IMG/VR virus record: IMGVR_UViG_2667527522_000001
Length of the DNA: 50,608 nucleotides
Reading direction: 5' to 3' (one strand)
DNA from: a virus
Taxonomy: Duplodnaviria; Heunggongvirae; Uroviricota; Caudoviricetes
Of this stretch, positions 1 through 50,608 are shown piece after piece. Made by a program: the position numbers and the translations under genes. The notes beneath the pieces are model-generated. The model made no database searches. It worked only from the letters and a program-made list of their open reading frames with translations, and was not told where the DNA came from. Position 1 is the first letter of the stretch. Each line of letters opens with the position of its first letter.

Positions 1-861
1 ATGGTTGACAATGTTTTTAAGAAGAAATTGGCATCAATTAAGAACGAACATGTGTCGGTGTTAGATAGTTACAAAGTAAGATCATTTAAAGAGACTCATA
101 GCGACACGGCCTGTATTGTGCGTATTATTGAAATATATTCACTGAATAAGCTGCGAGCTAAAGGTGAAAAGCTGTATTCACTTACGGGGTTAACAGTACC
201 TGATACGGAAACTGTGGCGAATGAGATCAACCTGCTCCTGAGCCGTTATGCCCAGTTGTGTCGTCAGGAAGAGGAAGAGTTATCTTTCCGGCAGCGTGAA
301 GTGACAAATGCGGAAGTTGCATGGAAAAGCACATTCTCAAAAAACGGCGTCAGTAGCATTGCTGAAGCCAAAACGAATAAAATGGGGCATGCTGAACGAG
401 CGGATGCTGAACGGTATTACCATCTGGCTGTTTCCCGGTTGAATGAACAACATAGTCGATTGAGCACGATCAAGCTTTTGCCGGGAGTACTGGCCGATGA
501 AGGAAACTACATTGGGAAGGGAATCGATAAGCGTTTACTGAATATATTTCCTCAATCCGGCCAGATCCCTGCTGATTTTATTTCTGTATTTAATGACAGT
601 GACGTTGTCCGTGATATTAAATTTATTACTGATGCACTCAAGTCTTTATCTGATTCCGTGAGTGAAATTATTAGTCGTTGTAGCGTTCCAACTGATCGTT
701 ATGTATTAAATAACGGTGGAATGGCAAGAGCTATGGCTTACAGGGAGTACTATCGAGCAGATAATTATGTATTACGTTCAGTCGTAAGTGACCGGGATTA
801 TGTTGAGCATGTAATGAAATACAATCTGGTTACTGAGTACAAAAATAAAATCTTTTCTTAA
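1..861 (+). CDS. Hypothetical protein in scaffold position upstream of the capsid gene; may be 5'-truncated by the window edge
   Basis: 286-codon frame open from base 1; ends 22 bp before the GpN-like gene; no family recognisable by eye. Confidence 0.4.
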   Translation: MVDNVFKKKLASIKNEHVSVLDSYKVRSFKETHSDTACIVRIIEIYSLNKLRAKGEKLYSLTGLTVPDTETVANEINLLLSRYAQLCRQEEEELSFRQREVTNAEVAWKSTFSKNGVSSIAEAKTNKMGHAERADAERYYHLAVSRLNEQHSRLSTIKLLPGVLADEGNYIGKGIDKRLLNIFPQSGQIPADFISVFNDSDVVRDIKFITDALKSLSDSVSEIISRCSVPTDRYVLNNGGMARAMAYREYYRADNYVLRSVVSDRDYVEHVMKYNLVTEYKNKIFS

Positions 862-883
862 ATACTTAAAAAGGTGAAAAACT

Positions 884-1888
884 ATGTATGCCTTCAAAAC
901 TGAAAGGCCGGACGCAGCACGTCGTTATCATAATAAATTCGTCACTGGCACTAACTATCAGGAAGAATCAAACAGACGCTTTGCATTAAGCGAACCTACT
1001 GAAAATATACTGCGTACCTCAATTCTGGAATCCGGGTGGCTTATTAAAAATATTACCCTACGTGATGTTAACGCCGTGTCAGGTAATGCCGTCAATATTG
1101 GTGCCAGTGAACTGTATACCGGACGTGTGGATGGTGGCCGTTTCCACAAAAAAATGGCAATCAATGGTACGGAGTTCTTTCTGACAGAGACGGATACCTG
1201 CGCCCGGATCAGCTATTCCGATATGTCTCATATTTACCATACCGGCGTGCCGGATGAGTTTGAGAAAACGGTTGAGAGCTTTTTTGCCCAGGCATATGCG
1301 CTGGACATGCTGCGGGTCGGTTTCAACGGTGTGTCGATTGCAAATACTACAAACCCGGAAATCAATAAAAAAGGCGAGGATGTCAATATTGGCTGGCATG
1401 CACTGGCGAAAGCCTACGGGAACGGAAAGCAAATCATCTCTGAGCCTGTCACTCTGGGAGAGACTGGCACCTGGAAAAATATTGATGCTCTGGCCAACCA
1501 TCTGATTACAGAGCTTATTGCTGAGCAGTTTCGTGAAGATCCTCGTCTGGTTGTACTGGTTGGGGCAGAGCTGGCAGCACATCAACGCCTGAAGTTATTT
1601 AATGCCGCAGACCGCCCGTCTGATGTGAATGCGGCACAGATGGCTACAAGTTCTGTTGCTGGCCGCTTTGCGTTTATTCCCCCGTTTATGCCGGGTAAGC
1701 GTCTGGCAGTAACGACGCTGGATAATCTGCATATTTACACTCAGGCGATAACACGCTGGTTTCGTGCTGAGTTTGATGATGAAAGCAGTGAATACGTGCA
1801 TTCCTACCTGCGCAATGAAGGTTATGCACTCGGTGAACCTGAACTGTACGCGGCTGTTGATGAGTGCACCCTGACGTTTGCGGATTGA
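884..1888 (+). CDS. P2-family (GpN-like) major capsid protein
   Basis: 334 aa; motifs GFNGV, NIGW, EDPRLVVLVG, LDNLHIY line up with P2 gpN as I recall it; SD-like aaaggtg upstream. Confidence 0.6.
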   Translation: MYAFKTERPDAARRYHNKFVTGTNYQEESNRRFALSEPTENILRTSILESGWLIKNITLRDVNAVSGNAVNIGASELYTGRVDGGRFHKKMAINGTEFFLTETDTCARISYSDMSHIYHTGVPDEFEKTVESFFAQAYALDMLRVGFNGVSIANTTNPEINKKGEDVNIGWHALAKAYGNGKQIISEPVTLGETGTWKNIDALANHLITELIAEQFREDPRLVVLVGAELAAHQRLKLFNAADRPSDVNAAQMATSSVAGRFAFIPPFMPGKRLAVTTLDNLHIYTQAITRWFRAEFDDESSEYVHSYLRNEGYALGEPELYAAVDECTLTFAD

Positions 1889-1901
1889 CTTAGCGACAGA
1901 A

Positions 1902-1930
1902 AGACCCGCTCAGAGGCGGGTCTCGTTTAC
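1902..1930 (+). terminator. Rho-independent terminator-like hairpin after the capsid gene
   Basis: GACCCGC-loop-GCGGGTC stem directly after the stop codon; weak T tract. Confidence 0.4.
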
Positions 1931-2085
1931 AGCATCAGGAAAAATGAAGAACTATTTTTAAGCAGAGGCTTAAGCATGCCAGCGTTAATTAATCCAGGCA
2001 ATGATCAGTTTTCGGTTATAAATTTCTTGCCTCACCAGGAATGCGCGGGATATAGTTTAAAGGTTGCCGCAAAATCGGCAGCCGG

Positions 2086-2141
2086 GCGTAGGAACCCGTG
2101 TTATCTGAAGGCGATACTACACGCGCTAGGCGTGTTTTTTT
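2086..2141 (+). promoter_or_regulatory. seqA-like target box followed by hairpin and T7 run (candidate immunity terminator)
   Basis: GTAGGAAC...TCTGAAGG box at 2088-2111; CACGC-loop-GCGTG stem plus TTTTTTT at 2120-2141. Confidence 0.45.
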
Positions 2142-2261
2142 GTGTCGCAGCTTTGACTCACCTAAAATTTATGGTGTGGTGGCTGATTGTATTTTTTTAT
2201 TTTTTACGCCACATCATCAGAATTATGGTAGTCCAGGCGGGGCAGCTTTCGGGCTGGCCGG

Positions 2262-2289
2262 TATCCTTCAGAGCCGGTATTCCTACCCC
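2262..2289 (+). ncRNA. seqB-like element, candidate CI-RNA-type antisense core
   Basis: TATCCTTCAGAGCCGGTATTCCTAC is the same-strand reverse complement of both halves of the flanking boxes. Confidence 0.4.
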
Positions 2290-2310
2290 CGTCTGGGCTA
2301 CCACCCATGA

Positions 2311-2352
2311 GCGTAGGAACTCCGGTGGTAGCGTTACCCGCTATCTGAAGGA
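2311..2352 (+). promoter_or_regulatory. seqC-like target box overlapping the Shine-Dalgarno of the first alpha-operon ORF
   Basis: GTAGGAAC...TCTGAAGGAGG; AGGAGG sits 10 nt before the ATG at 2363. Confidence 0.45.
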
Positions 2353-2362
2353 GGTTGCCATT

Positions 2363-2566
2363 ATGGCTACAGTCCCTGCTTTATCTCACCCTGAATTTAC
2401 CTTTGTCTTTCTGGCTGTCCGCCGTACAGACCGTGATGCCCGTCCACGCCCTGTGCGTGTAATCGCAGAATGCGAGCATGCTGCACGCCTTAAACTTGCC
2501 ACTGAATTTATCCTGAGCTTTGCTGCCCGTATCCCTGTGAAAAGAGCCGGGGAGGTGGTTGCATGA
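2363..2566 (+). CDS. Small hypothetical protein, first ORF after the immunity region
   Basis: 67-codon ORF with strong SD; the longer 1976-2566 frame upstream is probably not coding. Confidence 0.4.
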   Translation: MATVPALSHPEFTFVFLAVRRTDRDARPRPVRVIAECEHAARLKLATEFILSFAARIPVKRAGEVVA

Positions 2567-2799
2567 AATCCATGAATTTTAAGCAAGGCTGCATATTGAG
2601 TGAACAGGGGGAGAGTCGTCTGTTACGGGCGGCACTGGCCAGTGAGTTTCTTGCAGAGGTCTTGTCCGTGCCCACAGTGAATGGAGCGAGAACTGTTTCA
2701 GCGGAAGGCGCTGCGGCTTTAGTGGCCTGTATTGCCGAACAACTGGATGGCGTTGTTAAGGAAACCAGCACAATTAAGGGAGTGATGCGCGATGAATAA
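2563..2799 (+). CDS. Small hypothetical protein
   Basis: 78 aa; ATGA overlap with upstream ORF, translationally coupled. Confidence 0.45.
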   Translation: MKSMNFKQGCILSEQGESRLLRAALASEFLAEVLSVPTVNGARTVSAEGAAALVACIAEQLDGVVKETSTIKGVMRDE

Positions 2800-3202
2800 T
2801 AATCAAAATTTAAAGGCGCATGCTTTACGAACAGCAGTCTTACGCTACTACATTGCTGATGCATTCATTTCCTTAATGGTGCGTGTTCATAATGAACCTG
2901 TTTATATTGAAGATGGCGAACGAATAGAACTCTCCCACGAAAAAGTGGTGAGTAATATTATTTACCATATTGAAATGCCGTGGGTGAATGAGTTTGGGGC
3001 TGATGCTGGTTGCATACTGGCCGCAGAGAAACTGGAAAAAATGCTTAAACCAGGCTTTATGTCAGAAAATATTCGCCTGTCAGTTTTTGGTGTCACAGAG
3101 ATGCGTGAGGTTTACCGGGATATTATTTTCGGAGCACCTGATGGCGAACTACCCGAAGGTTTTGAATTTGTGAAGCCGGAAGGTCAGGAGGTGCTGCTGT
3201 GA
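2792..3202 (+). CDS. Hypothetical protein
   Basis: 136 aa; stop overlaps the primase GTG start. Confidence 0.5.
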   Translation: MNNNQNLKAHALRTAVLRYYIADAFISLMVRVHNEPVYIEDGERIELSHEKVVSNIIYHIEMPWVNEFGADAGCILAAEKLEKMLKPGFMSENIRLSVFGVTEMREVYRDIIFGAPDGELPEGFEFVKPEGQEVLL

Positions 3203-5886
3203 AAACACCGTCTGTATCCACGATTTCCGGAGCTGCAATTGGGCGCTGGCCTTATATCCTGTCAGCATTAGGTATTAAAGTACCGTCCGCAGGACATCAT
3301 GGGGCTTGCCCTGCCTGTGGTGGAAAAGATCGTTTTCGACTGGACGATAAAGCGGGGCGAGGGACGTGGTTTTGTAATCAGTGCGGTCATGGCGATGGTC
3401 TTGATCTGGTTCGTCTGGTGACAGGAAGAAAGATAAAAGAAGTCGCCGGGATGGTATCTGAGGCGCTTGCATTACCAGAAATACAGGAGAAGCCCGCATT
3501 GCCAGCCAGGAAAAAGGCCGCAGGAAAAGAAGCGGGCGCGGAGCGATATACCAGACTCAGACAGCAGTCCTGCAATGGTGAGCCGGTCTATCTGACAAAT
3601 AAGAGCTTACACGGGTATTCACTTCCCTTGCTGTCACAGCCTTTGAATCTGGCCGGAATAACATTTTCCACCGGTTCATTACTGCTGCCTTTGACGGATA
3701 TTTCCGGGAATATTACTGGTGGCCAGCTTATCAATCCTGACGGGGATAAAAGTCTGCTGCCCGGTAGCCAGCTGTCTGGCGCATTCATTGCCCTGACCGA
3801 TATACCCGCTGAAACACCTGAACAGGTGATTATCACTGAGGGTTTTGCCACGGCGCTTACCGTCAGTCTGCTGACTGAAGGATGGATCGTGGCGGCTGTC
3901 GCTGCCACCAATTTACTGAAGGTGACGGAGCAGATCCGAAAACGCTGGCCGGAAACCCGGATCATTCTGGCCGGAGATAATGATCTGGCTGACGGCAAAG
4001 AAAACACCGGGCGTATTCAGGCAGAGAAAGCCGCCAAAGCGGTGGATGGCTGGGTAACGCTCCCTCCGGTACGCCATAAGGCTGACTGGGATGATTATCG
4101 GCAGGAAGTGGGGAAAGAACGGGCGAGAGATGCCTTTCGTGAAGAAATGACGCTGCATGGCAAAGGGCAGACCCGTTTACCAGAAGGGTTCCGGCTGACA
4201 AAAGAATATTTGTGGTACGACAAGCTGGTTAATAAGTCTGATGGTGATACAGAGATACGTAATATCAAAATTTGCAGTCCGTTGCGGGTGACGGCAATCA
4301 CCAGTGATGCTGATGGAAGTAATTACGGGCGTTTGCTGGAATGGGAAGATACCAACGGAAACAGCCGTAAATGGGCAATGCCGATGGAGATGCTGGGCGG
4401 TAGCGGGGAAGAACTGCGCCGCGTTCTGCTGGTTAACGGGCTTTCTTACATCAACATTAACGGCATGGCCAGAGCATTCCTGATGGAATATATCTCGCTG
4501 TGTAAACCGGACAGAAAAGTAACCTGTGTGAATAAAACTGGCTGGCACGGCGGGGTTTACGTTCTCCAGGATGAAGTGATAGGGCGCGAAGCCCAGTCAG
4601 TCATCTTACAAACATCGAGTGTGCAGGGGCGTGATTTTCGTGTCAGCGGCACATCAGAGGGCTGGCGTGAAAATATAGGCCGTTATTGCATAAAGAATGC
4701 CCGTCTTGCCTTTGCGGTGAGTCTGGCATTTGCTGCCCCCCTTCTGAAACTGGTTGGTATCGGCGGTGGAGGTTATCACCTCAAAGGGGAATCCACAGAC
4801 GGTAAAACCACGACGATGAAAGTGGCTGCATCAGTATGTGGTGGAACAGATTTCTGGCATACGTGGCGGGCGACGGGGAATGCCTTAGAAGGAACGGCGA
4901 GCCGCCGCAATGATGCCACGCTGATGCTGGATGAAATCCGGGAGGTTGACGGCAGGGAGGCGGGAAATATCGCTTATATGCTGGCTAACGGGCAGGGCAA
5001 AGCCAGAGCCAGAACAGATGGTTCGGTAAGGGAAACCAACCGCTGGAATCTGTTGTTTCTGTCTACCGGGGAACTGTCACTGGTAGAGCATGCGGCAAGC
5101 GCCGGGGAACGTACGTATGCCGGGGTTGAGGTCAGAATGATCCAGATCCCAAGCGATTCGGGCAAGTATGGCGTGTTTGAAGAACTTCATGGCTTCAGTA
5201 GCGGGAAAACCCTGGCTGAGCATCTTGAGCAGCACGTAGCGCATTATCATGGTGCACCATTCCGCGACTGGCTGTATTGCCTGACCGCTGATCTGCCGGA
5301 ACTGACCAGTCAGGCGAAAGCCTTATTGAAAGAGTATACCCGAAGGCTGACGCCGGAAAATGCCGGGAATCAGGTTGGCCGGGCTGTTACCCGTTTTGCT
5401 CTGGTTGCGATGGCCGGGGAGCTGGCCACAAAAGCGGGCATCACAGGATGGCCGGAGGGAGAGGCCTTTCGTGCCGCTCAAAGCTGTCTGGCTGCATGGA
5501 TGGCTGACCGGGGCCATACAGCTAATCAGGAAGATAAAGCGGCACTTGAACAGGTTCGGGACTTCATGACGCGTAATCAGTTCAGTCGGTTTGCTGACTG
5601 GAATGACGACAGGAACCGGCCTGTTTCAATGATGGGATTCAGAAAAGTCGATAAAGGAGACAACGTGACAGAGCCGGTTGTGACGTTCTACGTTCTCCCG
5701 TCAGGCTGGAAGGAGATCTGTAAGGGATTTGACTCGCGTAAGGTGGCCAGGTTGTGTGTGGACGCGGGCTGGCTGAAACCCGGTGAAGATGGCCGGACGC
5801 AAAACAGCATTCGCCTGCCAGAAATAGGGCTTAAACGTGTGTACCAGTTCAATACACAGGTACTGGGAAGCGCTGAACCTGAGTGA
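3199..5886 (+). CDS. P4 alpha-type primase/helicase
   Basis: 895 aa; N-terminal CPACGG...CNQCGHGDG zinc-binding motif; long central and C-terminal region; GTG start with AGGAGG SD. Confidence 0.88.
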   Translation: MKTPSVSTISGAAIGRWPYILSALGIKVPSAGHHGACPACGGKDRFRLDDKAGRGTWFCNQCGHGDGLDLVRLVTGRKIKEVAGMVSEALALPEIQEKPALPARKKAAGKEAGAERYTRLRQQSCNGEPVYLTNKSLHGYSLPLLSQPLNLAGITFSTGSLLLPLTDISGNITGGQLINPDGDKSLLPGSQLSGAFIALTDIPAETPEQVIITEGFATALTVSLLTEGWIVAAVAATNLLKVTEQIRKRWPETRIILAGDNDLADGKENTGRIQAEKAAKAVDGWVTLPPVRHKADWDDYRQEVGKERARDAFREEMTLHGKGQTRLPEGFRLTKEYLWYDKLVNKSDGDTEIRNIKICSPLRVTAITSDADGSNYGRLLEWEDTNGNSRKWAMPMEMLGGSGEELRRVLLVNGLSYININGMARAFLMEYISLCKPDRKVTCVNKTGWHGGVYVLQDEVIGREAQSVILQTSSVQGRDFRVSGTSEGWRENIGRYCIKNARLAFAVSLAFAAPLLKLVGIGGGGYHLKGESTDGKTTTMKVAASVCGGTDFWHTWRATGNALEGTASRRNDATLMLDEIREVDGREAGNIAYMLANGQGKARARTDGSVRETNRWNLLFLSTGELSLVEHAASAGERTYAGVEVRMIQIPSDSGKYGVFEELHGFSSGKTLAEHLEQHVAHYHGAPFRDWLYCLTADLPELTSQAKALLKEYTRRLTPENAGNQVGRAVTRFALVAMAGELATKAGITGWPEGEAFRAAQSCLAAWMADRGHTANQEDKAALEQVRDFMTRNQFSRFADWNDDRNRPVSMMGFRKVDKGDNVTEPVVTFYVLPSGWKEICKGFDSRKVARLCVDAGWLKPGEDGRTQNSIRLPEIGLKRVYQFNTQVLGSAEPE

Positions 5887-5912
5887 TTATCGCGTGAGTC
5901 TTATTTTTATGA

Positions 5913-6103
5913 GGTAACACTGGTAACAGAGGTAACACCCGTTACTGATGCGGTTCTTCAGTGTTACCAGTCAAAAATACTGACTGGTAACAGAGGTAAC
6001 AAAAAATGGTGTGTTACCACGCGTTACCTCTTGATTTTGCTAACTGGTAACAGATTAAATCCTTTTAAATCAATAGCGTTACACGTGTTACCAGTGTTAC
6101 ACG
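5913..6103. repeat. Iteron cluster, candidate replication origin or cis replication region
   Basis: At least 6 direct GGTAACA and 4 inverted TGTTACC copies in about 190 bp directly after the primase gene. Confidence 0.55.
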
Positions 6104-6168
6104 TTCAGAACAAGAGGTAGGGATCCAAATCCCTTCTTCTGGCGGGCAACAGTATAGGGCACAGAACG

Positions 6169-6441
6169 ATGAAGATGATGAGAATGTACTGCCCCACATG
6201 TCAGGCAGTAGCACGGATAGGTAAAACAAACAGGAAACACCCACAACTGTACGATGTGTACTGCTATTGCTCTAATGTGGAGTGCGGTCACTCGTTTGTG
6301 ATGAATGTTGCTTTCTCCCATTCCGTTAGTCCAAGCGCGCTGAACGGGCAGGGAAGGGTTAAAGAGCTGATTGATGCAATTCCACCCGAGGAACGGGAAA
6401 AGGCTTTAAAGTTGCTGCTGGCTGCGCAAAAGAATGGGTAA
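6169..6441 (+). CDS. Ogr/Delta-family zinc-finger late activator
   Basis: YCPTCQ...(22 aa)...CSNVEC cysteine spacing as in P2 Ogr. Confidence 0.65.
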   Translation: MKMMRMYCPTCQAVARIGKTNRKHPQLYDVYCYCSNVECGHSFVMNVAFSHSVSPSALNGQGRVKELIDAIPPEEREKALKLLLAAQKNG

Positions 6442-7120
6442 AGTATGCGTCGGGAATGGCCGATCTGTTCCCGGAACCTGAACACAGGATTTCAGTTTAT
6501 ACGGTCATAAAATTATTATTTTTCAACTGGTTATCTTCTTCATGTTTCACAAACCTTCATAAAATCACACACCTAAAATTAATTATCCATTTAATATCAT
6601 AGAGTTGCGTATTCAGGCCATAGATTCGACGGACAGTAAAACTGAAAAAAAATGAATTTCTTTTCATTCTTTTCAGTTCCTGTATCGCAGTACATCTCGA
6701 GGACTGGCACGGACTGGCGGTATCGTTTGTAAAAAATCCAGGCTGAAAATTTTTAGTGATATGAAAACCGCAGGCGGGTGCGGTGTAGTGCCGTTTTGGT
6801 CTGTCGAGCGTATATTTTCCTTTTTCACGATTGCTGCATATCAAAACGAATGTGCAGATATCAGGCCGTGTCAAACCGTGAATCGTGGAGCCTAAATGCC
6901 CAAACTACGTTTGTAGACCTAGCTAGGGGAAGGTTTCCACATATACTGCTACCTATCTTCCAGTCGCTGGTGAGGATCAAGGTAAGCTAACTGGTGAACA
7001 AGAAAAGTACTTTCGTATCTTGCGTACTCGTTTTTTTTGATTAGTATGTACAGGTAGTAACTGGATGGTGAGAATTCGTCATAACTTATCAAATTGCATG
7101 ATGTTTATAGAGTATGAGTA

Positions 7121-8002
7121 ATGAGTCATAATAAAAAGGAATATGCTAAATTTTTCCGTCGCCCCATTTTTTCATCCTTAGCAAAAGGTAAGGATATTTC
7201 GGATTTATTTGGGAGTTTTGATTCTTACTGCTATGAAACACTGTTTTCAAACAATGATAATAATGAACATGAGATTTCACTAAGGGATTTATTTACATCA
7301 TTATATGATTTTTTGCGTCTGAATTATAGAAATGAATATGTTTATAAGACAGCACTTGTCAATAAAATAATATTCGGTAAGCACAGCCCAAAAACAAGTT
7401 CGTCGTCCATAGAGTTACCAATTAAAAACTCTATAGTGGATGTTGCGGTGTTTAATGGTACGTCTACAGCTTACGAGATTAAGACAGAGTATGATTCACC
7501 AAAAAGGTTGATTACTCAAGCCCCTGATTATTTGGATGTTTTTGATAAAGTGTATATAGTTACACATCCAGAGTATGCAAGTAAATATTGTGCTTTAAAT
7601 CTCCCCAGAGTGGGAGTTATGGTTTTGAATAAAAAAGATCAATTGAGTGTCATTAAGGAGGCAGATTCAAATATTGATTATATTAAAAGTGACAGCTTGT
7701 TTTCAGTTCTTAGAAAGGAAGAGTTCTTAGCTATAATAGAAGATTACACTTCAACTAAAATAAATATGCCTAACGGATTGGTTTATGAATATTGTAAAGA
7801 GATATTCATGCAGATGCCATTAAACATAGCAAATAAATACTTTATCTCTGCTATGAAAAAAAGATGTAACGATAAAGTTTTTTTGGATTATATTTATTCT
7901 CTTCCAGCATGTTTACGTGTTTTAGGTTATGCAACACCATTATCAAGAAAGCAAAAAGAATTCATCATGAATTTGATGGATGTAAAAATTAAAATTTGTT
8001 GA
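7121..8002 (+). CDS. Hypothetical protein, gene A of an AT-rich accessory cassette; possible PD-(D/E)xK-like nuclease motif
   Basis: 293 aa; markedly AT-rich versus flanks; IVDVAVF...AYEIK resembles a D...ExK signature. Confidence 0.65.
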   Translation: MSHNKKEYAKFFRRPIFSSLAKGKDISDLFGSFDSYCYETLFSNNDNNEHEISLRDLFTSLYDFLRLNYRNEYVYKTALVNKIIFGKHSPKTSSSSIELPIKNSIVDVAVFNGTSTAYEIKTEYDSPKRLITQAPDYLDVFDKVYIVTHPEYASKYCALNLPRVGVMVLNKKDQLSVIKEADSNIDYIKSDSLFSVLRKEEFLAIIEDYTSTKINMPNGLVYEYCKEIFMQMPLNIANKYFISAMKKRCNDKVFLDYIYSLPACLRVLGYATPLSRKQKEFIMNLMDVKIKIC

Positions 8003-8466
8003 TATCCTCAGGAGTTGTAAGTTATGTATAGCCCATATTTGTATGCGAGAAGTACAGAGTTATTATGCCTTAGGGACCTCGTTGCGAAGGGAGTTAGCCT
8101 AAATGGTCTGCTACCAATTTTAGAACCAATTAACGTCAATACGAGAAATTTATTAACATGTTTAAATGTTTGGAATTCTGACATAATTGTTATCCTTAAT
8201 CCTTATCAGGAAGATTTTTCTTCACACAATAACGTCTTAACTTTAAATCAAAATTTATCAAGTGTATTAACAAATAAAAATAATATCATCTCTGGATATC
8301 TTATTCAGCCCAATACAACGATTAATGATATTAATAATTGGTTGAATGCTAACTTAAATAGACGAGTTGCACTTCTATATGATAATCCATCATTATCCAA
8401 CTCTGATATTCGGTAATGGTGCCAACTTACTGATTTAGTGTATGATGGTGTTTTTGAGGTGCTCCC

Positions 8467-8742
8467 GTGGCTTCCATCTCCATCAGTTGTCCCTCCTGCT
8501 CAGCTACTGAAGGCGTGGTGCGTAACGGTAAAAGTACTGCCGGACATCAGCGCTATCTCTGCTCTCACTGCCGTAAAACATGGCAACTGCAGTTCACTTA
8601 CACCGCTTCTCAACCCGGTACACACCAGAAAATCATTGATATGGCCATGAATGGTGTTGGATGCCGGGCAACCGCCCGCATTATGGGCGTTGGCCTCAAC
8701 ACGATTTTACGTCACTTAAAAAACTCAGGCCGCAGTCGGTAA
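8467..8742 (+). CDS. insA: IS1 InsA
   Basis: [42 protein letters not shown] matches IS1 InsA. Confidence 0.9.
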
Positions 8743-9164
8743 CCTCGCGCATACAGCCGGGCAGTGATGTGATTGTCTGCGCTGAAATGGACGAACAGTG
8801 GGGCTACGTCGGTGCTAAATCACGTCAGCGCTGGCTGTTTTACGCGTATGACAGGATACGGAGGACGGTTGTGGCGCACGTCTTCGGTGAACGCACTCTG
8901 GCCACACTGGAGCGTCTTCTGAGCCTGCTGTCGGCCTTTGAGGTCGTGGTATGGATGACGGATGGCTGGCCGCTGTATGAATCCCGCCTGAAGGGAAAGC
9001 TGCACGTAATCAGCAAGCGTTACACTCAGCGCATTGAGCGACATAACCTGAATCTGAGACAACATCTGGCAAGGCTGGGACGGAAGTCACTGTCGTTCTC
9101 AAAATCGGTGGAGCTGCATGACAAAGTCATCGGGCATTATCTGAACATAAAACACTATCAGTAA
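8661..9164 (+). CDS. insB: IS1 InsB frame (transposase InsAB' by -1 frameshift)
   Basis: IS1 InsB sequence; slippery AAAAAAC at about 8718. Confidence 0.85.
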
Positions 9165-9729
9165 GTTGGAGTCATTACCTGATATTCAGTTGTTGGCGAC
9201 AAATCAATTGATTAGTTATCATGTTGTTTTAAATAATAAAATGCTTCCTAATCAGTGCGCTCTTCTTCCTTTGTCGAAGTTAATTATTATTAGCGATAAC
9301 TTTAGAAAGTTAGCAAAAAATGCTGATTATAATGGGCCGGAACTTTTCACGCACGCACATCAATTCGTGGGACAAAATTACTTAGGATTTGGCGATTATA
9401 CAATTACTGGCCAGGTACTAGATCTTGGAGGTGGTCAACCTTCTGCTGTTGCCGCACATTTGGTGTTCAAGAATTTACAAGCGAATACAGTTTGGATTCG
9501 TCATTTTGTATCAAGCAACACGCAACGAGGAAGTTCAAATGTTACTGCAAAATTTTTAGATGTTTCAGATCAAATTACAAATCTTGTTCCCCAACATCCA
9601 ACCCAGTTTGGCAGCAACATTGGTCTTAACTATTATTATTACAATAGTCAACCAACTGTAAGGCATTTCCCTGGGTTGCCAAAAAACAAACAGTATCAAA
9701 TTACTCACCATATTTGTTTCATGCTGGAT

Positions 9730-10953
9730 TTAATAGCAGGTCGTATTTAATAAGCTAGCGTACCATTCCATCATTACTTGTCGATCTTTAATATATTGCG
9801 CATGATTGTAAGTACCTCGAATAGAGTTCTTATCAACATGCGCAAGCTGCATTTCAATCCAGGCACTTTCAAACCCATGCTCATGCAAGATGGTGCTCAT
9901 GGTATGCCTGAAACCGTGACCCGTTAACCGACCGTGATAACCCAGTAGTTTTATCACTTTGTTGATGCTGGCTTCGCTCATTGGTTTACTGACGTCATTC
10001 CGGCCAGGGAAAACGAGGCTGTAATTCCCTGTTATTTCTTGCAGCTTTTTCAGGATATTGATCGCCTGAGTTGATAACGGAACCAGATGGGGGCGGCGTT
10101 TCTTCATCCGTTCTTTGGGGATCTCCCATAAGGCATTATCTAAATCAAACTCAGCCCATTCCGCTGCACGTAGTTCAATTGTTCGCACGCCTGTTAGCAT
10201 CAACAGCTGCGTGGCGTATTTGGTAACTAAACTGCCCTGATAGTTATCCAGAGCATTAACGAACTCGGGCAACTCGCTTTCAGTCAGGAACGGGAAGTGT
10301 TGGGTTTTAGGTTTGTTGAGTGCGATAGCTAAATCGGGTGCAAAATTATACTTTGCTCTACCAGTGGCAACAGCATAACGAAGCACTTCACCACAGCGGC
10401 GGCGGATCTTACTGGTTTGCTCTAGCGCACCTCTTTTCTCTATTTTTTGCAGGACGGTTAGCAGTTCTAATGGTTCAATCTGCTCAATTGGGCGCTGGCC
10501 GATAAAAGGAAAAATATCCTTTTCCATACAATTGAGAACCTCTTTTGCATAACCCTCTGACCAGGTGGCTTTTTTCGATGAGTGCCATTCTCTGGCCACA
10601 GACTCAAAGCTGTTCTCATGCGCGAACTGCAAAGCAATCTTATCTGCTTTTCTGGCTTCACTTGGGTTTATCCCGTTGGCTAACATCGAACGCGCTTCAT
10701 CACGTTTGGTACGTGCCTGTGCCAACGACACATCGCCATATACGCCAAAGGAAATCATCTTAGGCTTACCTGCAAAGCGATAGCGAAAACGCCAGCCTTT
10801 ACTGCCCGCTGTGTCGATCAGGAGTGATAGCCCCATACCATCGTTAAGCGTATAGGGTTTGTCCTTCGGTTTTGCTCTTTTTATTTGGATGTCAGATAGC
10901 AGCATGTGTATAGAAAAAAGATCGAACTCAGTTATACACAATGTTATACGCAA
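9730..10953 (-). CDS. int: Tyrosine integrase, P4 type
   Basis: 407 aa; N-terminal KRAKPKDKPYTLNDGMGLSLLI arm-binding type; C-terminal GHGFRHT...LAHVD...RGTYNHAQY catalytic region. Confidence 0.9.
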   Translation of the reverse strand: MRITLCITEFDLFSIHMLLSDIQIKRAKPKDKPYTLNDGMGLSLLIDTAGSKGWRFRYRFAGKPKMISFGVYGDVSLAQARTKRDEARSMLANGINPSEARKADKIALQFAHENSFESVAREWHSSKKATWSEGYAKEVLNCMEKDIFPFIGQRPIEQIEPLELLTVLQKIEKRGALEQTSKIRRRCGEVLRYAVATGRAKYNFAPDLAIALNKPKTQHFPFLTESELPEFVNALDNYQGSLVTKYATQLLMLTGVRTIELRAAEWAEFDLDNALWEIPKERMKKRRPHLVPLSTQAINILKKLQEITGNYSLVFPGRNDVSKPMSEASINKVIKLLGYHGRLTGHGFRHTMSTILHEHGFESAWIEMQLAHVDKNSIRGTYNHAQYIKDRQVMMEWYASLLNTTCY

Positions 10954-23564: not shown

Positions 23565-23924
23565 ATGGATTATTCACAGTTAAGTGATTTTGAAATTAAC
23601 AAGCGAGTGGCAATTTGCTGTGGATTTGCTCCCGAAGATTGCGAAATCGCAAAGTTGGGAACATCAATCGTTGGTGTTGAGTGGGATGACGAAACTGGTT
23701 ATGCAATAAAAACGGTTGATTACTGTAAAAGCCCATCAGACGCAGAGCCGATTATCGTAGAGAACAGAATTGGAATTATTCCAGCACCAGAAAATGGATT
23801 ATGGAAGGCAGCGCATAGAAAAGTTGGCGGTGATAGTACCCCATATCATATGACTCAAGATGAAAACCCACTCCGCGCTGCCATGATTGTCTTTCTCATG
23901 ATGCAGGACGCCAATAATGCTTAG
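23565..23924 (+). CDS. Hypothetical nin-region protein
   Basis: ORF 23523-23924; probable start MDYSQLSDFE. Confidence 0.45.
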   Translation: MDYSQLSDFEINKRVAICCGFAPEDCEIAKLGTSIVGVEWDDETGYAIKTVDYCKSPSDAEPIIVENRIGIIPAPENGLWKAAHRKVGGDSTPYHMTQDENPLRAAMIVFLMMQDANNA

Positions 23925-24632
23925 CCCATCCCAATCCATTCAATACCAGAAAGAAAGCGTCGAGCGAGCTTTAACGTGCGCTAACTGCGGTCAGAAGCTG
24001 CATGTGCTGGAAGTTCACGTGTGTGAGCGTTGTATATATGAATGCTTAAATATGGTGGAACATAATGAGAAATATAAGCAACATAGACGAATTAAGAAAT
24101 AAATTATCATATGATGATGTTTTAGGTGTACTTAGATGGAAAGTGTCTCCTTCTAATAATGTTAAGGTTGGCAGTGTTGCTGGTTACATTAGGAGTGATG
24201 GTTATAGGATGTTAACTATCGATGGTGTAATTACTTATGCTCACCACGTTATATGGATGATAAATAATGGTGAGATTCCATTAGGGTATAAAATTGATCA
24301 TATAAATGGAGTAAGGTCAGATAATAGGCTATCTAATCTTCGATTGGTTACACACCAACAGAATGCACAGAACCAAAAGAGAAAAATAACCAATTCGTCA
24401 GGAGTGACTGGAGTATATTTCAATAAAGAGAGATGTAAGTGGATTGCGAATATATGCGTAGATGGGCGCACCAAATATCTTGGAATATTTGCTAGCATCA
24501 TTGACGCTATTGCAGAAAGGAAGAGGGCAGAAAAAGAACTGGGTTTTCATGAAAACCATGGCAGACCATAACTGCGCAGAACTGATGAGCGATCCGAATA
24601 GCTCAATGTACGAGGAAGAAGACGATGAGTGA
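23917..24632 (+). pseudogene. ninF: ninF split by a homing-endonuclease insertion
   Basis: N-terminal 39 codons to ...HVCERC at 24033; matching C-terminal CAELMSDPNSSMYEEEDDE at 24573-24632, in frame if 24034-24572 is removed. Confidence 0.6.
24065..24571 (+). CDS. HNH homing endonuclease with AP2-like DNA-binding region
   Basis: HHVIW...IDHINGVRSDNRLSNLRLVTHQQN HNH motif; own SD GGTGGA. Confidence 0.8.
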   Translation: MRNISNIDELRNKLSYDDVLGVLRWKVSPSNNVKVGSVAGYIRSDGYRMLTIDGVITYAHHVIWMINNGEIPLGYKIDHINGVRSDNRLSNLRLVTHQQNAQNQKRKITNSSGVTGVYFNKERCKWIANICVDGRTKYLGIFASIIDAIAERKRAEKELGFHENHGRP

Positions 24633-24837
24633 TTACCTGAAATGGTATCTCTGCCACCGCTGGTTAATTAAGTTTGCTGTAAAAGACTGGATGACAGCGG
24701 ATGCCAACAAGCTTAAGCAAAGAAAAGACTATTACTACGCCAGAATGAAGGAAAACTACTGCTCAATTCGCACTCGCATATTTATTAAAAAAGACCTTCA
24801 GTCAATTCTTCAATTGCGAGGGAAGGTAAATGGCTAA
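24625..24837 (+). CDS. Small hypothetical protein
   Basis: 70-codon ORF. Confidence 0.35.
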   Translation: MSDYLKWYLCHRWLIKFAVKDWMTADANKLKQRKDYYYARMKENYCSIRTRIFIKKDLQSILQLRGKVNG

Positions 24838-25120
24838 CCTACGCAAAGAAGCGCGCGGCAGAGAATGCCAGGTACGTATTTACGGCGTATGCAATGGCAA
24901 TCCTGAAACTACAGTTCTGGCACATTACCGGATGGCTGGAATTTGCGGAACGGGAATGAAGCCTGACGACCTGATCGGCGCATGGGCTTGTAGCGCGTGT
25001 CGCGATGAAATCGACCGACGCACCCATAATCTCGACAACAAAGACGCCAGACTTTACCACCTCGAAGGCGTGATCAGGACGCAGGCGATACTGCTGAAGG
25101 AGGGGAAGATTAAGTCATGA
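24830..25120 (+). CDS. Cys-rich nin-region protein (YbcO-like)
   Basis: MANLRKEARGRECQVRIYGVCNGNPETTVLAHYRMAG...CSACRDEIDRR. Confidence 0.55.
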   Translation: MANLRKEARGRECQVRIYGVCNGNPETTVLAHYRMAGICGTGMKPDDLIGAWACSACRDEIDRRTHNLDNKDARLYHLEGVIRTQAILLKEGKIKS

Positions 25121-25641
25121 ACGGTAAAAGATATCCAACACAAAAAGAAATCAATGAATTGTATGAATATAATAGCGAAACAGGTTTGTTTATATACAAG
25201 AGAAGAGAAAGTGCAAGAGAGTGCTGGAATTCAACATATGCCGGTAAGATTGCTGGTTCTATAGATGAAAAAGGATACGTTCGTATATCTGTAAATAAAA
25301 AAGTTTGTCGAGCTCATAGAATCGCATGGATATCCTTTTATGGAAGTGAACCTGATGGGGAAATTGACCACATAAATGGAGTTAAAAGCGATAACAGAAT
25401 ATGCAATTTGCGCGTTGTAGATGATAAACAGAACTCAAGGAACAGAAAAAAGCCTATTAATAATCGCTCTGGAGTAATGGGGGTTGCCTACTATAAGAAG
25501 AATAAAAAGTGGGGCGCATATATAAACAGTGATAATAAAAAGATATTTCTTGGATTATACGATGACATATCTCTAGCCGTTAATGCCAGAAAATTGGCGG
25601 AATCACGATTGGGGTATCACCATAATCATGGGAGAGGATAA
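25117..25641 (+). CDS. Second HNH-AP2 homing endonuclease, paralog of 24065-24571
   Basis: HRIAW...IDHINGVKSDNRICNLRVVDDKQN; fits exactly between neighbouring stop and start codons. Confidence 0.8.
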   Translation: MNGKRYPTQKEINELYEYNSETGLFIYKRRESARECWNSTYAGKIAGSIDEKGYVRISVNKKVCRAHRIAWISFYGSEPDGEIDHINGVKSDNRICNLRVVDDKQNSRNRKKPINNRSGVMGVAYYKKNKKWGAYINSDNKKIFLGLYDDISLAVNARKLAESRLGYHHNHGRG

Positions 25642-26760: not shown

Positions 26761-27211
26761 TGTTTGCACAACAGGTAAGAGCATTGAACCCGCAGACCTC
26801 GCGGAATTGGTGAAAGGTGCCGCGCAGTGCTCTTATCGTTGTGGTGAAGCTCAATGGCGAGCTAGCAGATAGGCGACAGTGAAAATACTAGTCATGTAGC
26901 TGACCGCCGCGCGTACTGCAATCGGCAGCGCACCGATGGAAGCCGGTTCGATTCCGGCCGCCACAACCCAAACTGAGCCGTAGCCACTGGCTATCCTGAA
27001 TTCATCAGTGATAGTTACGCTGCGGCATTCTACGCATGACCTTCGTGAAAGCGGGTGGCAAGAGGCTGCGCTAACAACCTCCTGCCGTTTTGCCCGTGCA
27101 TATCGGTCACGAACAAATCTGATTACTAAACACAGTAGCCTGGATTTGTTCTATCAGTAATCGACCTTATTCCTAATTAAATAGAGCAAATCCCCTTATT
27201 GGGGGTAAGAC

Positions 27212-47164: not shown

Positions 47165-49342
47165 ATGACAGATTCAATAAATGCCAATGTTGTGGTAAGC
47201 ATGCCATCGCAACTCTTCACTATGGCGCGTTCTTTTAAAGCAGTTGCCAATGGTAAAATTTATATCGGTAAAATTGACACTGACCCAGTAAATCCAGAAA
47301 ACCAGATTCAGGTTTATGTGGAGAACGAAGACGGCTCTCACGTTCCTGTTTCTCAACCAATCATCATTAACGCTGCTGGTTACCCGGTATATAACGGACA
47401 GATTGCCAAGTTCGTAACTGTGCAAGGCCATTCTATGGCTGTTTATGATGCATATGGGGCGCAGCAGTTCAATTTTCCTAATGTGTTGAAGTACGACCCG
47501 GATCAGTTTAAATTACTTATTGGCGGTACAGATGGTAGTAAATATATCGGTTTCGGCGCTTCAACGGTTTACGATGCAATCAGGAAAACACCTCAATACT
47601 ATGGAGCTAAAGCAGATGGATTGACATCAGATTCTGATGCCATTAATGCCGCAGCATTAGCTGCTTTTAATAATGGTGGTGGGGAAATATTTTACCCTCC
47701 AGGTGTTTATTTAATAGATTCTCCTATCATTCTTTATACAGGCGTTCATCATAAAGGCTCTGGAAAGAGAGCAACATTTCTGTATGTTAAAAAAGGTAGT
47801 AATACAGATGTATTTAAAACACATGGCTTTGGCGTTGTGGAAAATCTGTCTGATGCGCCATATGGATTTAGCATAAAAGATATGACCATTGATGGTAATT
47901 ATCTTGACTTGCAAAGAGATACAAACTCATGGAGAACTTGCGACACTGTTAACAATGACTATGGAACTGCCATTAAAATATTCGGCAGCATGTACCACAT
48001 TGACGTTGAGATTAATAATGTTGCAGAACATGCTCTCTATTCAGAGGGGTATGGATCATTTCATGATAATCAGGAACACGCCTCTGAAGTGAGGATAACG
48101 GGAAGAATTTCAGGGAGAGAGGGGGTTGTGTTCAGGGGGCCAGGTGATATTAACCTAGATTATATTGTTTTTGGCCTGTGTGGACTTCCTCCTTACAGCG
48201 CAAGATTAACAGCAACAAGCCAACAAAGCCTTCTTTATCCAGGAGAATCATGTCATGGAATTGTTCTTGATAATCAGTCTCCTTATACAGGACATGTCGA
48301 TATAAATTACATCCATGTATATGCTGTGTATTATGGCTATGGATTTAAGACGCTGGGTGTTAACCGATTCAATGCGAGGCACGTGTGTGTTGATAATAGT
48401 TTAGGTGGTTACTGGTTTACCAACGGGGCACATGGTGTTGTTGCCATCGCAGAAGCCAGGGCGTGCGGAAGAATGCCAGATAACTACACTGGCGATTCAA
48501 TTTCTCCTCTCCGCGACATGCTTCTGGATAACGGTAAAATCTGGACACTTAACATCAATATAAAAGCACAAAGATATTCACCTTCAATTGATGATGATGG
48601 GTATCAGATAGCTATATCAGGCAACAACAATGTAGTTACAATAAACCAAATTGGTCAGTTGCAGAGTGACAATGCCCCTATTAAAGCCTCGCTTCTTTCT
48701 GTTACTGGTGACAATAACAATGTTACTTTTACATCCAAGAGGATAAAAGGAAATTTATGTTACTTATCCGGCGGTGGTAATAATATAAGAGGTTCGTGTG
48801 ATAATTTGTTTTCGGGTTCTGCTCTTATTCGCGATGCAGTAAATTCAACAACAATTTGTTTTGCGAACAGCGTAGATATAACTGCGAAGGGGCTTTCTTC
48901 TGATTGCACTGGATTTAACAGCATTGGCACATGTGCATCAGAGAATATAAGATTAATCACTTCAGGCGCAAATGGTTATAATAGGTTTTTAGGTGATAGA
49001 ATGGCAGCCCTTAACAGGACGTGTACGTGGACGATTATGGCAACAGTTGGAAACTCAATAAATGGGAAATCAACTGACGATTATATTGAGTGGAATATGC
49101 CAAACCCAACAGGTAGCGAATCTAACGAGGTTGATATTGAGCATAATTTTCTGTATGCCCCAACACCAAACCAGATTGCTGTGTTGGGGTTTAGACAACC
49201 TGCTGGTTCTGCAGAAGGTGCAACTTTAAGTCCAATAGAAATTATCGGAACTCCAAGTGAGTCTTCTTTCAGAATTAGATACCATTGGTCAGGCCCTTTA
49301 TCTTCTGGCTATGCTCCAATTGTAATGTTCAGGATTAGATAG
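47165..49342 (+). CDS. Tailspike: P22-type N-terminal head-binding domain with a different receptor-binding body
   Basis: [48 protein letters not shown]...VLKYDPDQ N-terminus; remainder does not match P22. Confidence 0.85.
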
Positions 49343-49450: not shown

Positions 49451-50608
49451 TCACTCCACCTTTTCATCAAGCCAGTCCGCCCACCACTGCATCATTTCTC
49501 TGCGCTTATCCAGATACTGAGCATGGTTGTAAATCCCGCGCACAGATCCGCCGTTGGCATGTGCCAGTTGCACTTCAATAGCGTCAGCAGGCCATTCGTG
49601 CTCGTTCATAATCGTGCTGAATTCATGCCTGAATCCGTGACCGCTTTCCAGACCCTCATAGCCGATTTGTTTGATCACAAGCAATACCGCGTTCTCGCAG
49701 ATTGGCTTCTTCTTATCGTTGCGCCCGGCAAAAACAAACTCTGAGACTGGTTTGGTGATTGAGCTTAGCGTAGTGAGAAGTTCAACCACCTGGTCTGACA
49801 TCGGGACCACATGAATTTTTCGACCCTTCATCACACTGGCATCGATGGTGATAATCCTGTTTTCAAAATCGACGTTCTTCCATTGCATGGAACGAAGCTC
49901 TTTCGTTCTTAGGGCTGTGTAGCGTAAAACTCTGGTCGCAATGAGCGATACGATGCTTCCTGAAAATGTTGCCAGTGCTTTGTTGAATGCAGGGATCTGG
50001 TCTGCTGGAAGAAACGGGAAGTTCTTCTTGCGGTATCCTTTCATGGCGTCTGCAAGGTCAGGTGCCGGGTTATATTTAGCCCTGCCGGTGACAATAGCGT
50101 AACGGAAAACCTCGCCGCATCTTCTGCGTGCTTTGTTGGCTCGCTCCATTGCACCGCGATCTTCAAATCTGCGGATTACTTCCAGCAGTTGCATCGGCTC
50201 AATATCCTGAATTTCAAGACCGCCGATGATGGGTAAAATGTCGTCATCAAACATTTTGGCAAGTTCAGTTGCATAGCCTACTGACCAGACTTGCTTCTTG
50301 TGCTCGTACCATTCCTTGTAAATCGCACTAAATGAATTGTTGTTAGACGAAGTCTTTTTCGCCTTTACCGGATCGATGCCAACCGAGATGTCTTTCCTCG
50401 CAGTCCATGCCTTATCCCTTGCTTCCTGCAAAGTCATAAGCGGATATTTTCCGACAGTCAGGATTTTCTCCTTACCGTCAATCTTGTAGCGAAGCTGCCA
50501 TACCTTTTTCCCTGATACAGGGACATAAAGGTACAGGCCATTACCATCGAGAAGGCGGTATGGTTTTTCTTTCGGCTTTGCTGCTTCAATCTGCTTAACG
50601 GTGAGCAT
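49451..50608 (-). CDS. int: Tyrosine integrase, P4 type, IntS-like; start codon at the last bases of the window
   Basis: MLTVKQIEAAKPKEKPYRLLDGNGLYLYVPVSGKKVWQLRYKIDGKEK...GHGFRHEF...LAHANGGSVRGIYNHAQY. Confidence 0.9.
   Translation of the reverse strand: MLTVKQIEAAKPKEKPYRLLDGNGLYLYVPVSGKKVWQLRYKIDGKEKILTVGKYPLMTLQEARDKAWTARKDISVGIDPVKAKKTSSNNNSFSAIYKEWYEHKKQVWSVGYATELAKMFDDDILPIIGGLEIQDIEPMQLLEVIRRFEDRGAMERANKARRRCGEVFRYAIVTGRAKYNPAPDLADAMKGYRKKNFPFLPADQIPAFNKALATFSGSIVSLIATRVLRYTALRTKELRSMQWKNVDFENRIITIDASVMKGRKIHVVPMSDQVVELLTTLSSITKPVSEFVFAGRNDKKKPICENAVLLVIKQIGYEGLESGHGFRHEFSTIMNEHEWPADAIEVQLAHANGGSVRGIYNHAQYLDKRREMMQWWADWLDEKVE

Follow-up and report, generated by a model that had tools for sequence, protein, structure and literature searches.

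Nearly everything established about the biology of homing endonucleases comes from T4-like and other virulent phages. Free-standing endonuclease genes are known to enter coding sequences in a transposition-like manner. Edgell et al. 2010 (PMC2988022) describe seg43 in gene 43 of phage 25, mobE in nrdA of phage Aeh1 and mobA between T4 genes 60 and 39, and nrdD of FelixO1-like phages is split by a homing endonuclease gene as well (PMC4837284). Many T4 seg and mob genes are promoterless cassettes carried on the host transcript (PMC2988022). The family of HNH-AP2 homing endonucleases goes back to Magnani et al. 2004, as cited in Barth et al. 2023 (PMC10448857); an N-terminal HNH domain followed by a C-terminal AP2 domain is a described homing endonuclease architecture (PMC10448857). 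Here we analyze a stretch of 50,608 nucleotides (IMG/VR virus record IMGVR_UViG_2667527522_000001; the whole stretch is called the window, and positions refer to it) in which an HNH-AP2 endonuclease gene splits the phage gene ninF. The window contains a P22-like E. coli prophage with a DnaB-type helicase, a nin region, Q, lysis genes and P22-type portal and coat genes, and ninF is a non-essential gene of its early-right (pR, nin-region) operon. Comparison of sequences makes it probable that the insert is a promoterless, free-standing HNH-AP2 homing endonuclease gene that truncates a non-essential gene with no splicing involved; the homing itself we infer.

A 539-bp insert splits ninF

The features that make up the split gene are as follows.

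23917–24033, plus strand: ninF codons 1–39, the N-terminal piece (Pfam NinF, E 6.4e-12; base-for-base alignment with uninterrupted ninF)
23917–24102, plus strand: truncated NinF as encoded, 61 residues, 39 of NinF and 22 encoded by the insert (open reading frame (ORF) list)
24029–24033, plus strand: three insert-linked substitutions, G24029, T24030 and T24033 (CAC TGC to CGT TGT, His38Arg)
24034–24572, plus strand: 539-bp insert, the homing endonuclease gene cassette, interrupting ninF between codons 39 and 40
24054–24059, plus strand: Shine-Dalgarno sequence GGTGGA of the endonuclease gene, 5 nt ahead of its ATG and within the read-through tail of truncated ninF
24065–24571, plus strand: HNH-AP2 homing endonuclease ORF, 168 residues (Pfam HNH_3, PHROG 99, structure model)
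24573–24632, plus strand: ninF codons 40–58 and stop, the orphaned 3′ remnant, encoding CAELMSDPNSSMYEEEDDE, the same as the 3′ end of intact ninF
24612–24837, plus strand: 70-residue gene, PHROG 3973, function unknown, ATG at 24625, ribosome-binding site GAGGA at 24612–24616

The ninF frame that opens at 23917 is NinF-like up to ...LEVHVCERC (24033), then runs through 22 unrelated codons (IYECLNMVEHNEKYKQHRRIKK) and ends at TAA 24100–24102. All four zinc-knuckle cysteines (C21, C24, C36 and C39) lie within the N-terminal piece. The rest of the gene begins one base past the endonuclease stop and lacks a start codon there, and the ribosome-binding site of the 70-residue gene sits inside it. Truncated ninF, the endonuclease ORF and the 3′ remnant occupy three different genomic reading frames.

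Removal of 24034–24572 (539 bp) leaves a single 58-codon ninF ORF. Aligned with intact ninF from E. coli 2014EL-1343-2 (L003), the joined gene shows three mismatches in 177 bases, and all of them fall in the last five bases before the insert. The uninterrupted arrangement is also found in phage vB_EcoP-683R2, whose alignment with the window contains one clean 539-bp gap. The near-identity of the joined gene to an intact allele cannot be due to chance. An earlier reading of the window from its letters and ORFs, the sequence-only reading, had already followed ninF to ...HVCERC at 24033, seen its continuation at 24573–24632 after the stop of an endonuclease gene with its own ribosome-binding site, and predicted that excision of 24034–24572 restores a NinF frame. 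All these coordinates proved correct. The alignment with intact ninF that it had asked for places the insertion between codons 39 and 40 with an ambiguity of one base, as 24033–24571 fits equally well. That reading had also allowed for the downstream match being a coincidence, should intact genes lack the CAELMSD C-terminus; intact alleles do have it.

The insert has no splicing or transposition features

The insert has a G+C content of 35% versus 48% for its flanks. It is nearly all ORF: 507 of its 539 nt are taken up by the gene, leaving 31 nt before it and 1 nt after it (32 nt non-coding). The scan of its coding strand for promoters and terminators found neither.

Several observations might bring to mind a self-splicing group I intron, or some other splicing or bypassing element with an endonuclease ORF, in which case full-length NinF would still be made. 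The insertion is codon-precise and the frame is restored upon removal, the last exon base is T, as at group I 5′ splice sites, and HNH_3 enzymes such as I-HmuI are often intron-encoded. Even so, we regard this explanation as very improbable. The Rfam scan of the 3.5-kb and 631-nt regions found no intron, ribozyme or relevant family at E ≤ 10. Only 32 nucleotides are non-coding, in line with the argument of the sequence-only reading that the insert is too short for a group I core in addition to the ORF. The predicted folding of the insert RNA is ordinary relative to shuffled sequence (minimum free energy z −1.29), and that around the endonuclease ribosome-binding site does not go beyond shuffled controls either (z −1.22). 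Whichever boundary is chosen, the insert ends in ...CATAAC or ...CCATAA, that is, in C or A, whereas group I introns have a terminal G. Moreover, a diverged copy of the element, described below, lacks the right junction while its ORF stays under purifying selection.

Since the insert is discrete, foreign and low in G+C, one might also think of a transposon or insertion sequence, or of an in-frame domain similar to an intein, an idea to which we give almost no credence. The repeat search of the insert found neither terminal inverted repeats nor a target-site duplication, and its only domain is HNH_3, with no transposase. An intein or in-frame domain is ruled out because the ninF frame stops within the insert, at 24100–24102, after 22 codons, and because the endonuclease ORF and the 3′ remnant are in other frames. 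A free-standing endonuclease gene splits ninF without any splicing device, which is also what had been thought the likelier outcome from the letters of the window.

Endonuclease family and fold

The 168-residue ORF matches Pfam HNH_3 at residues 58–102 (E 1.2e-19; 70.1 bits with a cut-off of 24.8) and PHROG 99, 'HNH endonuclease' (E 3.4e-70). Three residues, D78, N91 and N103, are the same in all 67 homologues compared, and conservation is at least 90% for H79 and N100. An alignment-based AlphaFold model of the protein has a predicted local distance difference test score (pLDDT) of 90.8. The best match of this model among solved structures is I-HmuI (1u3e; Foldseek E 9e-4, probability 1.00), although the template modeling score is only 0.46 owing to domain arrangement.

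The enzyme had been called HNH-AP2 at the outset. The HNH part of this designation is firmly backed by the HNH_3 match, but by sequence the Pfam AP2 profile stays below threshold (15.4 bits versus a cut-off of 33.3, E 0.024), and it is superposition of the C-terminal domain that speaks for AP2. In the model, this domain (residues ~112–160) consists of strands 117–120, 125–132 and 135–142 and a helix, 145–159. It superposes on plant AP2 domains, namely TEM1 (7et5; 1.7 Å, 53 columns, probability 1.00) and AtERF1 (1gcc), with weak Foldseek E-values of 0.09–0.3. The 'HNH-AP2' label is supported by the modeled fold, not by the profile. NCBIfam has no model for either the endonuclease or NinF.

A diverged copy at the same site

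A 909-nt contig (L015) carries a diverged version of the element. Its endonuclease (P0002) is 85% identical in protein and 81% identical in nucleotide sequence to that of the window. Its ninF, likewise diverged, reads ...IHVCEKC up to the same left junction, the insert starts with the same ATATATG, and AGGAG stands in place of the endonuclease Shine-Dalgarno sequence. Between the two endonuclease genes, the synonymous divergence (dS) is 1.18 and the ratio of nonsynonymous to synonymous divergence (dN/dS) is 0.07. It follows that purifying selection on the enzyme at this single site has been both strong and long-lasting.

The right side of the insert fared differently. In L015, some 30 nt covering the ORF stop, the right junction and the CAELMSD codons are gone, and the ORF extends by nine codons. 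As the right junction is not conserved, it is no splice site. What survives of the distal ninF tail (PNGQMLEKDDG and stop) is out of frame and overlaps the start of ybcO, and this retained part carries a GGAG ribosome-binding site for the next gene. The insert-encoded read-through tail of truncated NinF is not conserved in L015. The comparison shows that the 3′ piece of ninF is not maintained as coding sequence.

Fate of the NinF pieces

Lambda tolerates loss of the entire nin region, and ninF is non-essential once polarity on Q is relieved (PMC10695390). Within NinF, the insertion falls past the fourth cysteine of the C21-x2-C24 ... C36-x2-C39 knuckles, and therefore truncated NinF retains the sole conserved core of the protein; the 25-position Pfam NinF model is fully matched by residues 20–44 of the truncated product, which is without the acidic tail. 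Truncated NinF products of 61 or 72 residues also exist as database clusters (P0141, P0145, P0155 and others). The PDB search with NinF found no significant relative, and the AlphaFold model of NinF is poor (pLDDT 64).

From its sequence, the phage is predicted to make a truncated NinF, comprising the zinc-knuckle part and an arbitrary 22-residue tail, and, from a separate ribosome-binding site, the endonuclease. The 3′ remnant would be dead coding sequence. It may survive mainly because it holds the ribosome-binding site and start of the next gene (24612–24627).

Alternatively, the N- and C-terminal NinF peptides might reassemble into a working protein, a case of 'genes in pieces' as in Aeh1 NrdA. 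No disabling mutation is seen in either ninF piece within the E. coli lineage, and the C-terminal frame is open back to an ATG at 24462, such an ORF being named NinF in RefSeq. However, the junction has neither a start codon nor a ribosome-binding site, the ORF from 24462 overlaps the endonuclease gene out of frame and adds 37 unrelated residues, and L015 has deleted the CAELMSD codons along with the right junction. The E. coli copies, which differ by 0–4 per 539 nt, are too young to show decay. We find reassembly of the two peptides quite improbable.

The annotation of carrier loci is uneven. In the E2348/69 locus (L002; NC_011601.1, 735687–736399), RefSeq treats the endonuclease as a partial pseudogene (3210–3359), yet the 168-codon ORF is intact, and a 51-residue ORF starting inside the endonuclease gene is called 'protein NinF'. 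In four other loci (L005–L008), GenBank assemblies give a gene range that extends from the HNH start to the ninF stop.

Distribution and linked flanking markers

We looked for the insert in complete E. coli genomes, taking the ninF and insert status of each from the best place per record, which matters in polylysogens such as E2348/69. Of 5426 genomes, 44 have it at 99.5–100% identity, E2348/69 and B7A among them, and about 1190 have an uninterrupted ninF. In the assembly collection, 3440 indexed blocks contain the exact endonuclease protein, which also occurs at 30 IMG/VR loci. Metagenome contigs yielded a few identical copies and otherwise relatives of at most 51% identity. In INPHARED, the best protein matches are endonucleases from Klebsiella and Escherichia phages, ~50% identical and encoded in unrelated contexts.

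The junctions are the same in all 44 fetched insert-bearing loci. The endonuclease ORF is intact in 42; one copy has a frameshift and one is ended by the contig end. The surroundings of the insert are mosaic: either ninE or ninX lies upstream, and downstream there may be the 70-residue ORF, ninG, an antirepressor gene or others. At one locus (L009), an IS21-type element (3741–4523, with an IstB-like ATPase gene on the opposite strand) lies just 3′ of the ninF remnant, and the first bases past the right junction also differ (+2, +3).

The bases next to the insert behave differently from those farther away. Counting from the insertion point, CGT TGT (−5 to −1) is found in 44/44 insert-bearing loci, whereas distant ninF polymorphisms (−67, +33 and +37) segregate in carriers and empty alleles alike. 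Searches of IMG/VR, complete E. coli genomes and NinF protein clusters turned up no uninterrupted allele that has CGT TGT. The best empty alleles of complete E. coli genomes read CAC TGT, and TGT alone occurs in 7 of 111 empty alleles. Likewise, in NinF cluster representatives 'CERC' always precedes the insert-encoded tail and never normal NinF sequence. Linked near markers combined with segregating distal ones form the pattern predicted by co-conversion during homing; recombination within the short ninF flanks could give the same pattern.

Variation and breakpoints in empty ninF alleles

If uninterrupted alleles are cut, traces might be expected near the insertion site. We compared 111 uninterrupted IMG/VR alleles, in which sites −54 to −29 were fixed by the search pattern. 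The non-major allele frequency reaches 29–40% at sites −10 to −4 (window 24024–24030), and no other site between −28 and +32 exceeds 9%. Codons between the third and fourth cysteines vary by multi-base replacements, the forms in this region being TGT GAG CAC, TGC TCC GAT, TGC TCA GAT, TGT GAA GCG and TGT GAG TAC. In NinF proteins, residues 37–38 are EH, SD, EA, EY, EV, GH or SC. The first knuckle (CANC) is invariant, and its bases together with the surrounding ones are almost so even at synonymous sites.

Aberrant alleles point to the same place. Five independent ones (L188–L192) leave ninF homology after GAT, GATT or GATTG, no more than 3 nt from the left junction. Three of these deletions could be mapped: they resume in sequence equivalent to window positions 26806 (beyond Q), 27424 and 43794, removing roughly 2 to 20 kb of prophage, with microhomologies ATTG, CGATTG and TT. 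Joints of this kind are typical of end joining at a break. Five of ~15 large junctions thus fall in an a-priori window of 3 nt out of ~81 detectable nt (binomial p ~1.5e-4), and 10 of 21 aberrant NinF alleles end within residues 35–40 (p ~0.009). Small frameshift alleles (+1, −2, −2) lie at −8 to −3. Two more junctions are at −12, one being a NinF–YbcO fusion and the other (L193) a leftward deletion into the chromosome. Such scars are as expected if uninterrupted alleles are cut at or beside the insertion site.

The leftward-deleted prophage remnant with the −12 junction is joined to chromosomal gntP/lysR-type genes (L193 and L194, 2001–2114). Protein cluster P0164 (91 residues, 19 contigs) is an in-frame fusion of NinF(1–35) to an internal part of YbcO, and P0082 (85 residues) an in-frame fusion of NinF to the RusA C-terminus. 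Both fusions represent further nin-region deletions that start in or near ninF.

A bolder reading of these patterns, which we put forward as speculative and doubtful, is that the endonuclease is at war with uninterrupted ninF in E. coli and Salmonella phages. Changes in dipeptide 37–38 would then be target escape, and when an incoming or induced carrier cuts a resident prophage, the outcome would sometimes be a microhomology deletion from codon 39 into the late genes, leaving a crippled prophage. The enzyme would drive nin-region mosaicism and at the same time contribute to prophage decay and to competition between prophages.

A number of observations weigh against an actively homing, target-cutting enzyme. 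The element is rare, occurring in ~4% of ninF-bearing E. coli genomes, and a DNA search of the insert against INPHARED phage records, including the distant mode, gave no match. The flanks could also be shuffled when lambdoid phages recombine by ordinary homology. The variable dipeptide, located between two zinc-ligand cysteines, may simply be unconstrained. The breakpoint set consists of cluster representatives picked by NinF similarity, with uneven ascertainment. Finally, all five large deletion junctions occur in alleles of the SD/AD type (Ser-Asp/Ala-Asp), not in the commoner Glu-His ones, and a different nuclease, or a property of SD/AD-type alleles, could underlie the deletions.

Many of these points would be accommodated if the insert were a passenger: a single insertion, no longer homing, that has spread with lysogen clones and by ordinary recombination, the variable codons and deletions having other causes. 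Its low frequency (44/5426 genomes) and its absence from isolated phages fit this scenario, as does the finding that GTDB species representatives contain no relative of the endonuclease gene. Only two sequence lineages were found, and lambdoid nin regions are notoriously mosaic (PMC2629481). On the other hand, a dN/dS of 0.07 over a dS of 1.18, together with 42/44 intact ORFs, argues for selected activity, the markers closest to the insert stay with it in every case although distal ones segregate, and the break scars match the junction to the base. We therefore consider a mere passenger unlikely and favor a homing endonuclease gene.

Proposed course of homing

Under the favored reading, lytic growth would bring expression of the endonuclease from the early-right transcript, antiterminated by N. 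In the course of such growth, or upon co-infection, it would nick or cut an empty ninF no more than a few bases from the codon 39/40 junction. Recombinational repair, with a carrier genome as template, would then copy the cassette together with the nearest flanking bases, CGT TGT, amounting to intronless homing. The insert, and perhaps His38Arg as well, would destroy the target and make carriers immune. More speculatively, failed repair would leave deletions, and target variation beside the site may be an escape from cutting.

Prophage setting and other endonuclease genes

The nin region of the window has the order ninB, ninX, ninF′, HNH ORF, ′ninF, 70-residue ORF, ybcO, second HNH ORF, rusA, ninH, Q. 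Other integrative elements lie on both sides of the P22-like prophage (window 1–9700 and 49451–50608), and the 50,608-nt window contains no tRNA genes. Further features are listed below.

3199–5886: P4-like primase-helicase gene (DUF927, Toprim_3, Zn_Ribbon_Prim), upstream of the prophage
9730–10953, minus strand: integrase, part of the P22-like prophage
25117–25641, plus strand: second HNH-AP2 endonuclease gene, 174 residues, 36% G+C, 40% identical to the first
47165–49342: tailspike, part of the P22-like prophage
49451–50608, minus strand: second tyrosine integrase gene, downstream of the prophage and extending past the window end

The second endonuclease gene fits precisely between ybcO and rusA: its start codon shares bases with the stop of ybcO, and its own stop is followed at once by the ATG of rusA. 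In phage 683R2, ybcO and rusA overlap with nothing between them. This gene is found in 33 of 5426 complete E. coli genomes. Other, unrelated HNH genes (NUMOD4+HNH_3 or HNH_3+AP2) were seen in related prophages (L004 1670–2179, L011 2081–2683, L012 1768–2253 and L192 699–1301), their sites being after ninF, between ninB and ninE, before ninB and before dam. Judging by these gene arrangements, the nin region of lambdoid phages looks like a hotspot for homing endonuclease genes.

Significance and comparison with known systems

The split ninF offers a simple, apparently active element in relatives of lambda and P22, genetically the most tractable phages, and in a dispensable gene of 58 codons. With such a phage group and such a gene, crosses, target-site mutagenesis and competition experiments would be easy. 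If it is true that the enzyme causes the scars and the hypervariability, the empty alleles would be a rare population-genomic record of an arms race between an endonuclease and its target, and likewise a record of endonuclease-triggered prophage deletions and of the endonuclease share in lambdoid mosaicism. On the practical side, the inconsistent RefSeq annotation (two 'NinF' proteins, sometimes with a 'partial' HNH pseudogene) could be corrected.

In its arrangement, the ninF element resembles mobE, mobA and seg43. All are intragenic and promoterless, without an intron or intein, depend on the host operon transcript and, like the ninF endonuclease, are of HNH type, with a start overlapping the upstream ORF. 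The differences concern the host gene and its fate. The interrupted genes in those systems encode essential enzymes whose halves reassemble, while ninF is tiny and dispensable, and its 3′ piece has no translation signals, the diverged lineage having begun to delete it. Those systems belong to T4-like lytic phages, and the ninF case to a temperate lambdoid phage. Moreover, the indirect evidence from alleles would locate cleavage at the insertion site itself, not hundreds of bases from it.

In this last respect the enzyme is closer to intron-encoded enzymes such as I-HmuI, as the same evidence suggests cutting at or next to the insertion site. I-HmuI, an intron-encoded HNH nicking enzyme of Bacillus phage SPO1 (1u3e), is also the best match for the whole model, and the HNH motifs align in sequence. 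The two proteins nevertheless share only 22% identity, and I-HmuI has a helix-turn-helix C-terminal domain instead of AP2 and resides in a group I intron.

With the HNH-AP2 family and PHROG 99 the enzyme shares the N-terminal HNH domain and, as far as the modeled fold goes, the C-terminal AP2 domain, and it has thousands of phage homologues at 40–50% identity. Its own lineage is known only from E. coli lambdoid prophages, where it has a defined intragenic site. The 'IPA-HNH' genes of ICP1 (PMC10448857) are too divergent for the HNH_3 profile, which the ninF endonuclease matches strongly. A similar annotation is seen for nrdD in FelixO1-like phages (PMC4837284), a phage gene annotated as two fragments around an endonuclease ORF, but there the gene encodes an essential-pathway enzyme, the phages are virulent and the endonuclease is unrelated.

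Our literature searches found no description of a split ninF; RefSeq annotates two 'NinF' fragments and an HNH gene. Set beside these systems, the split ninF is a further case of a known type of event, and its value lies in the tractable system and in the pattern of break scars and arms race rather than in a new mechanism.

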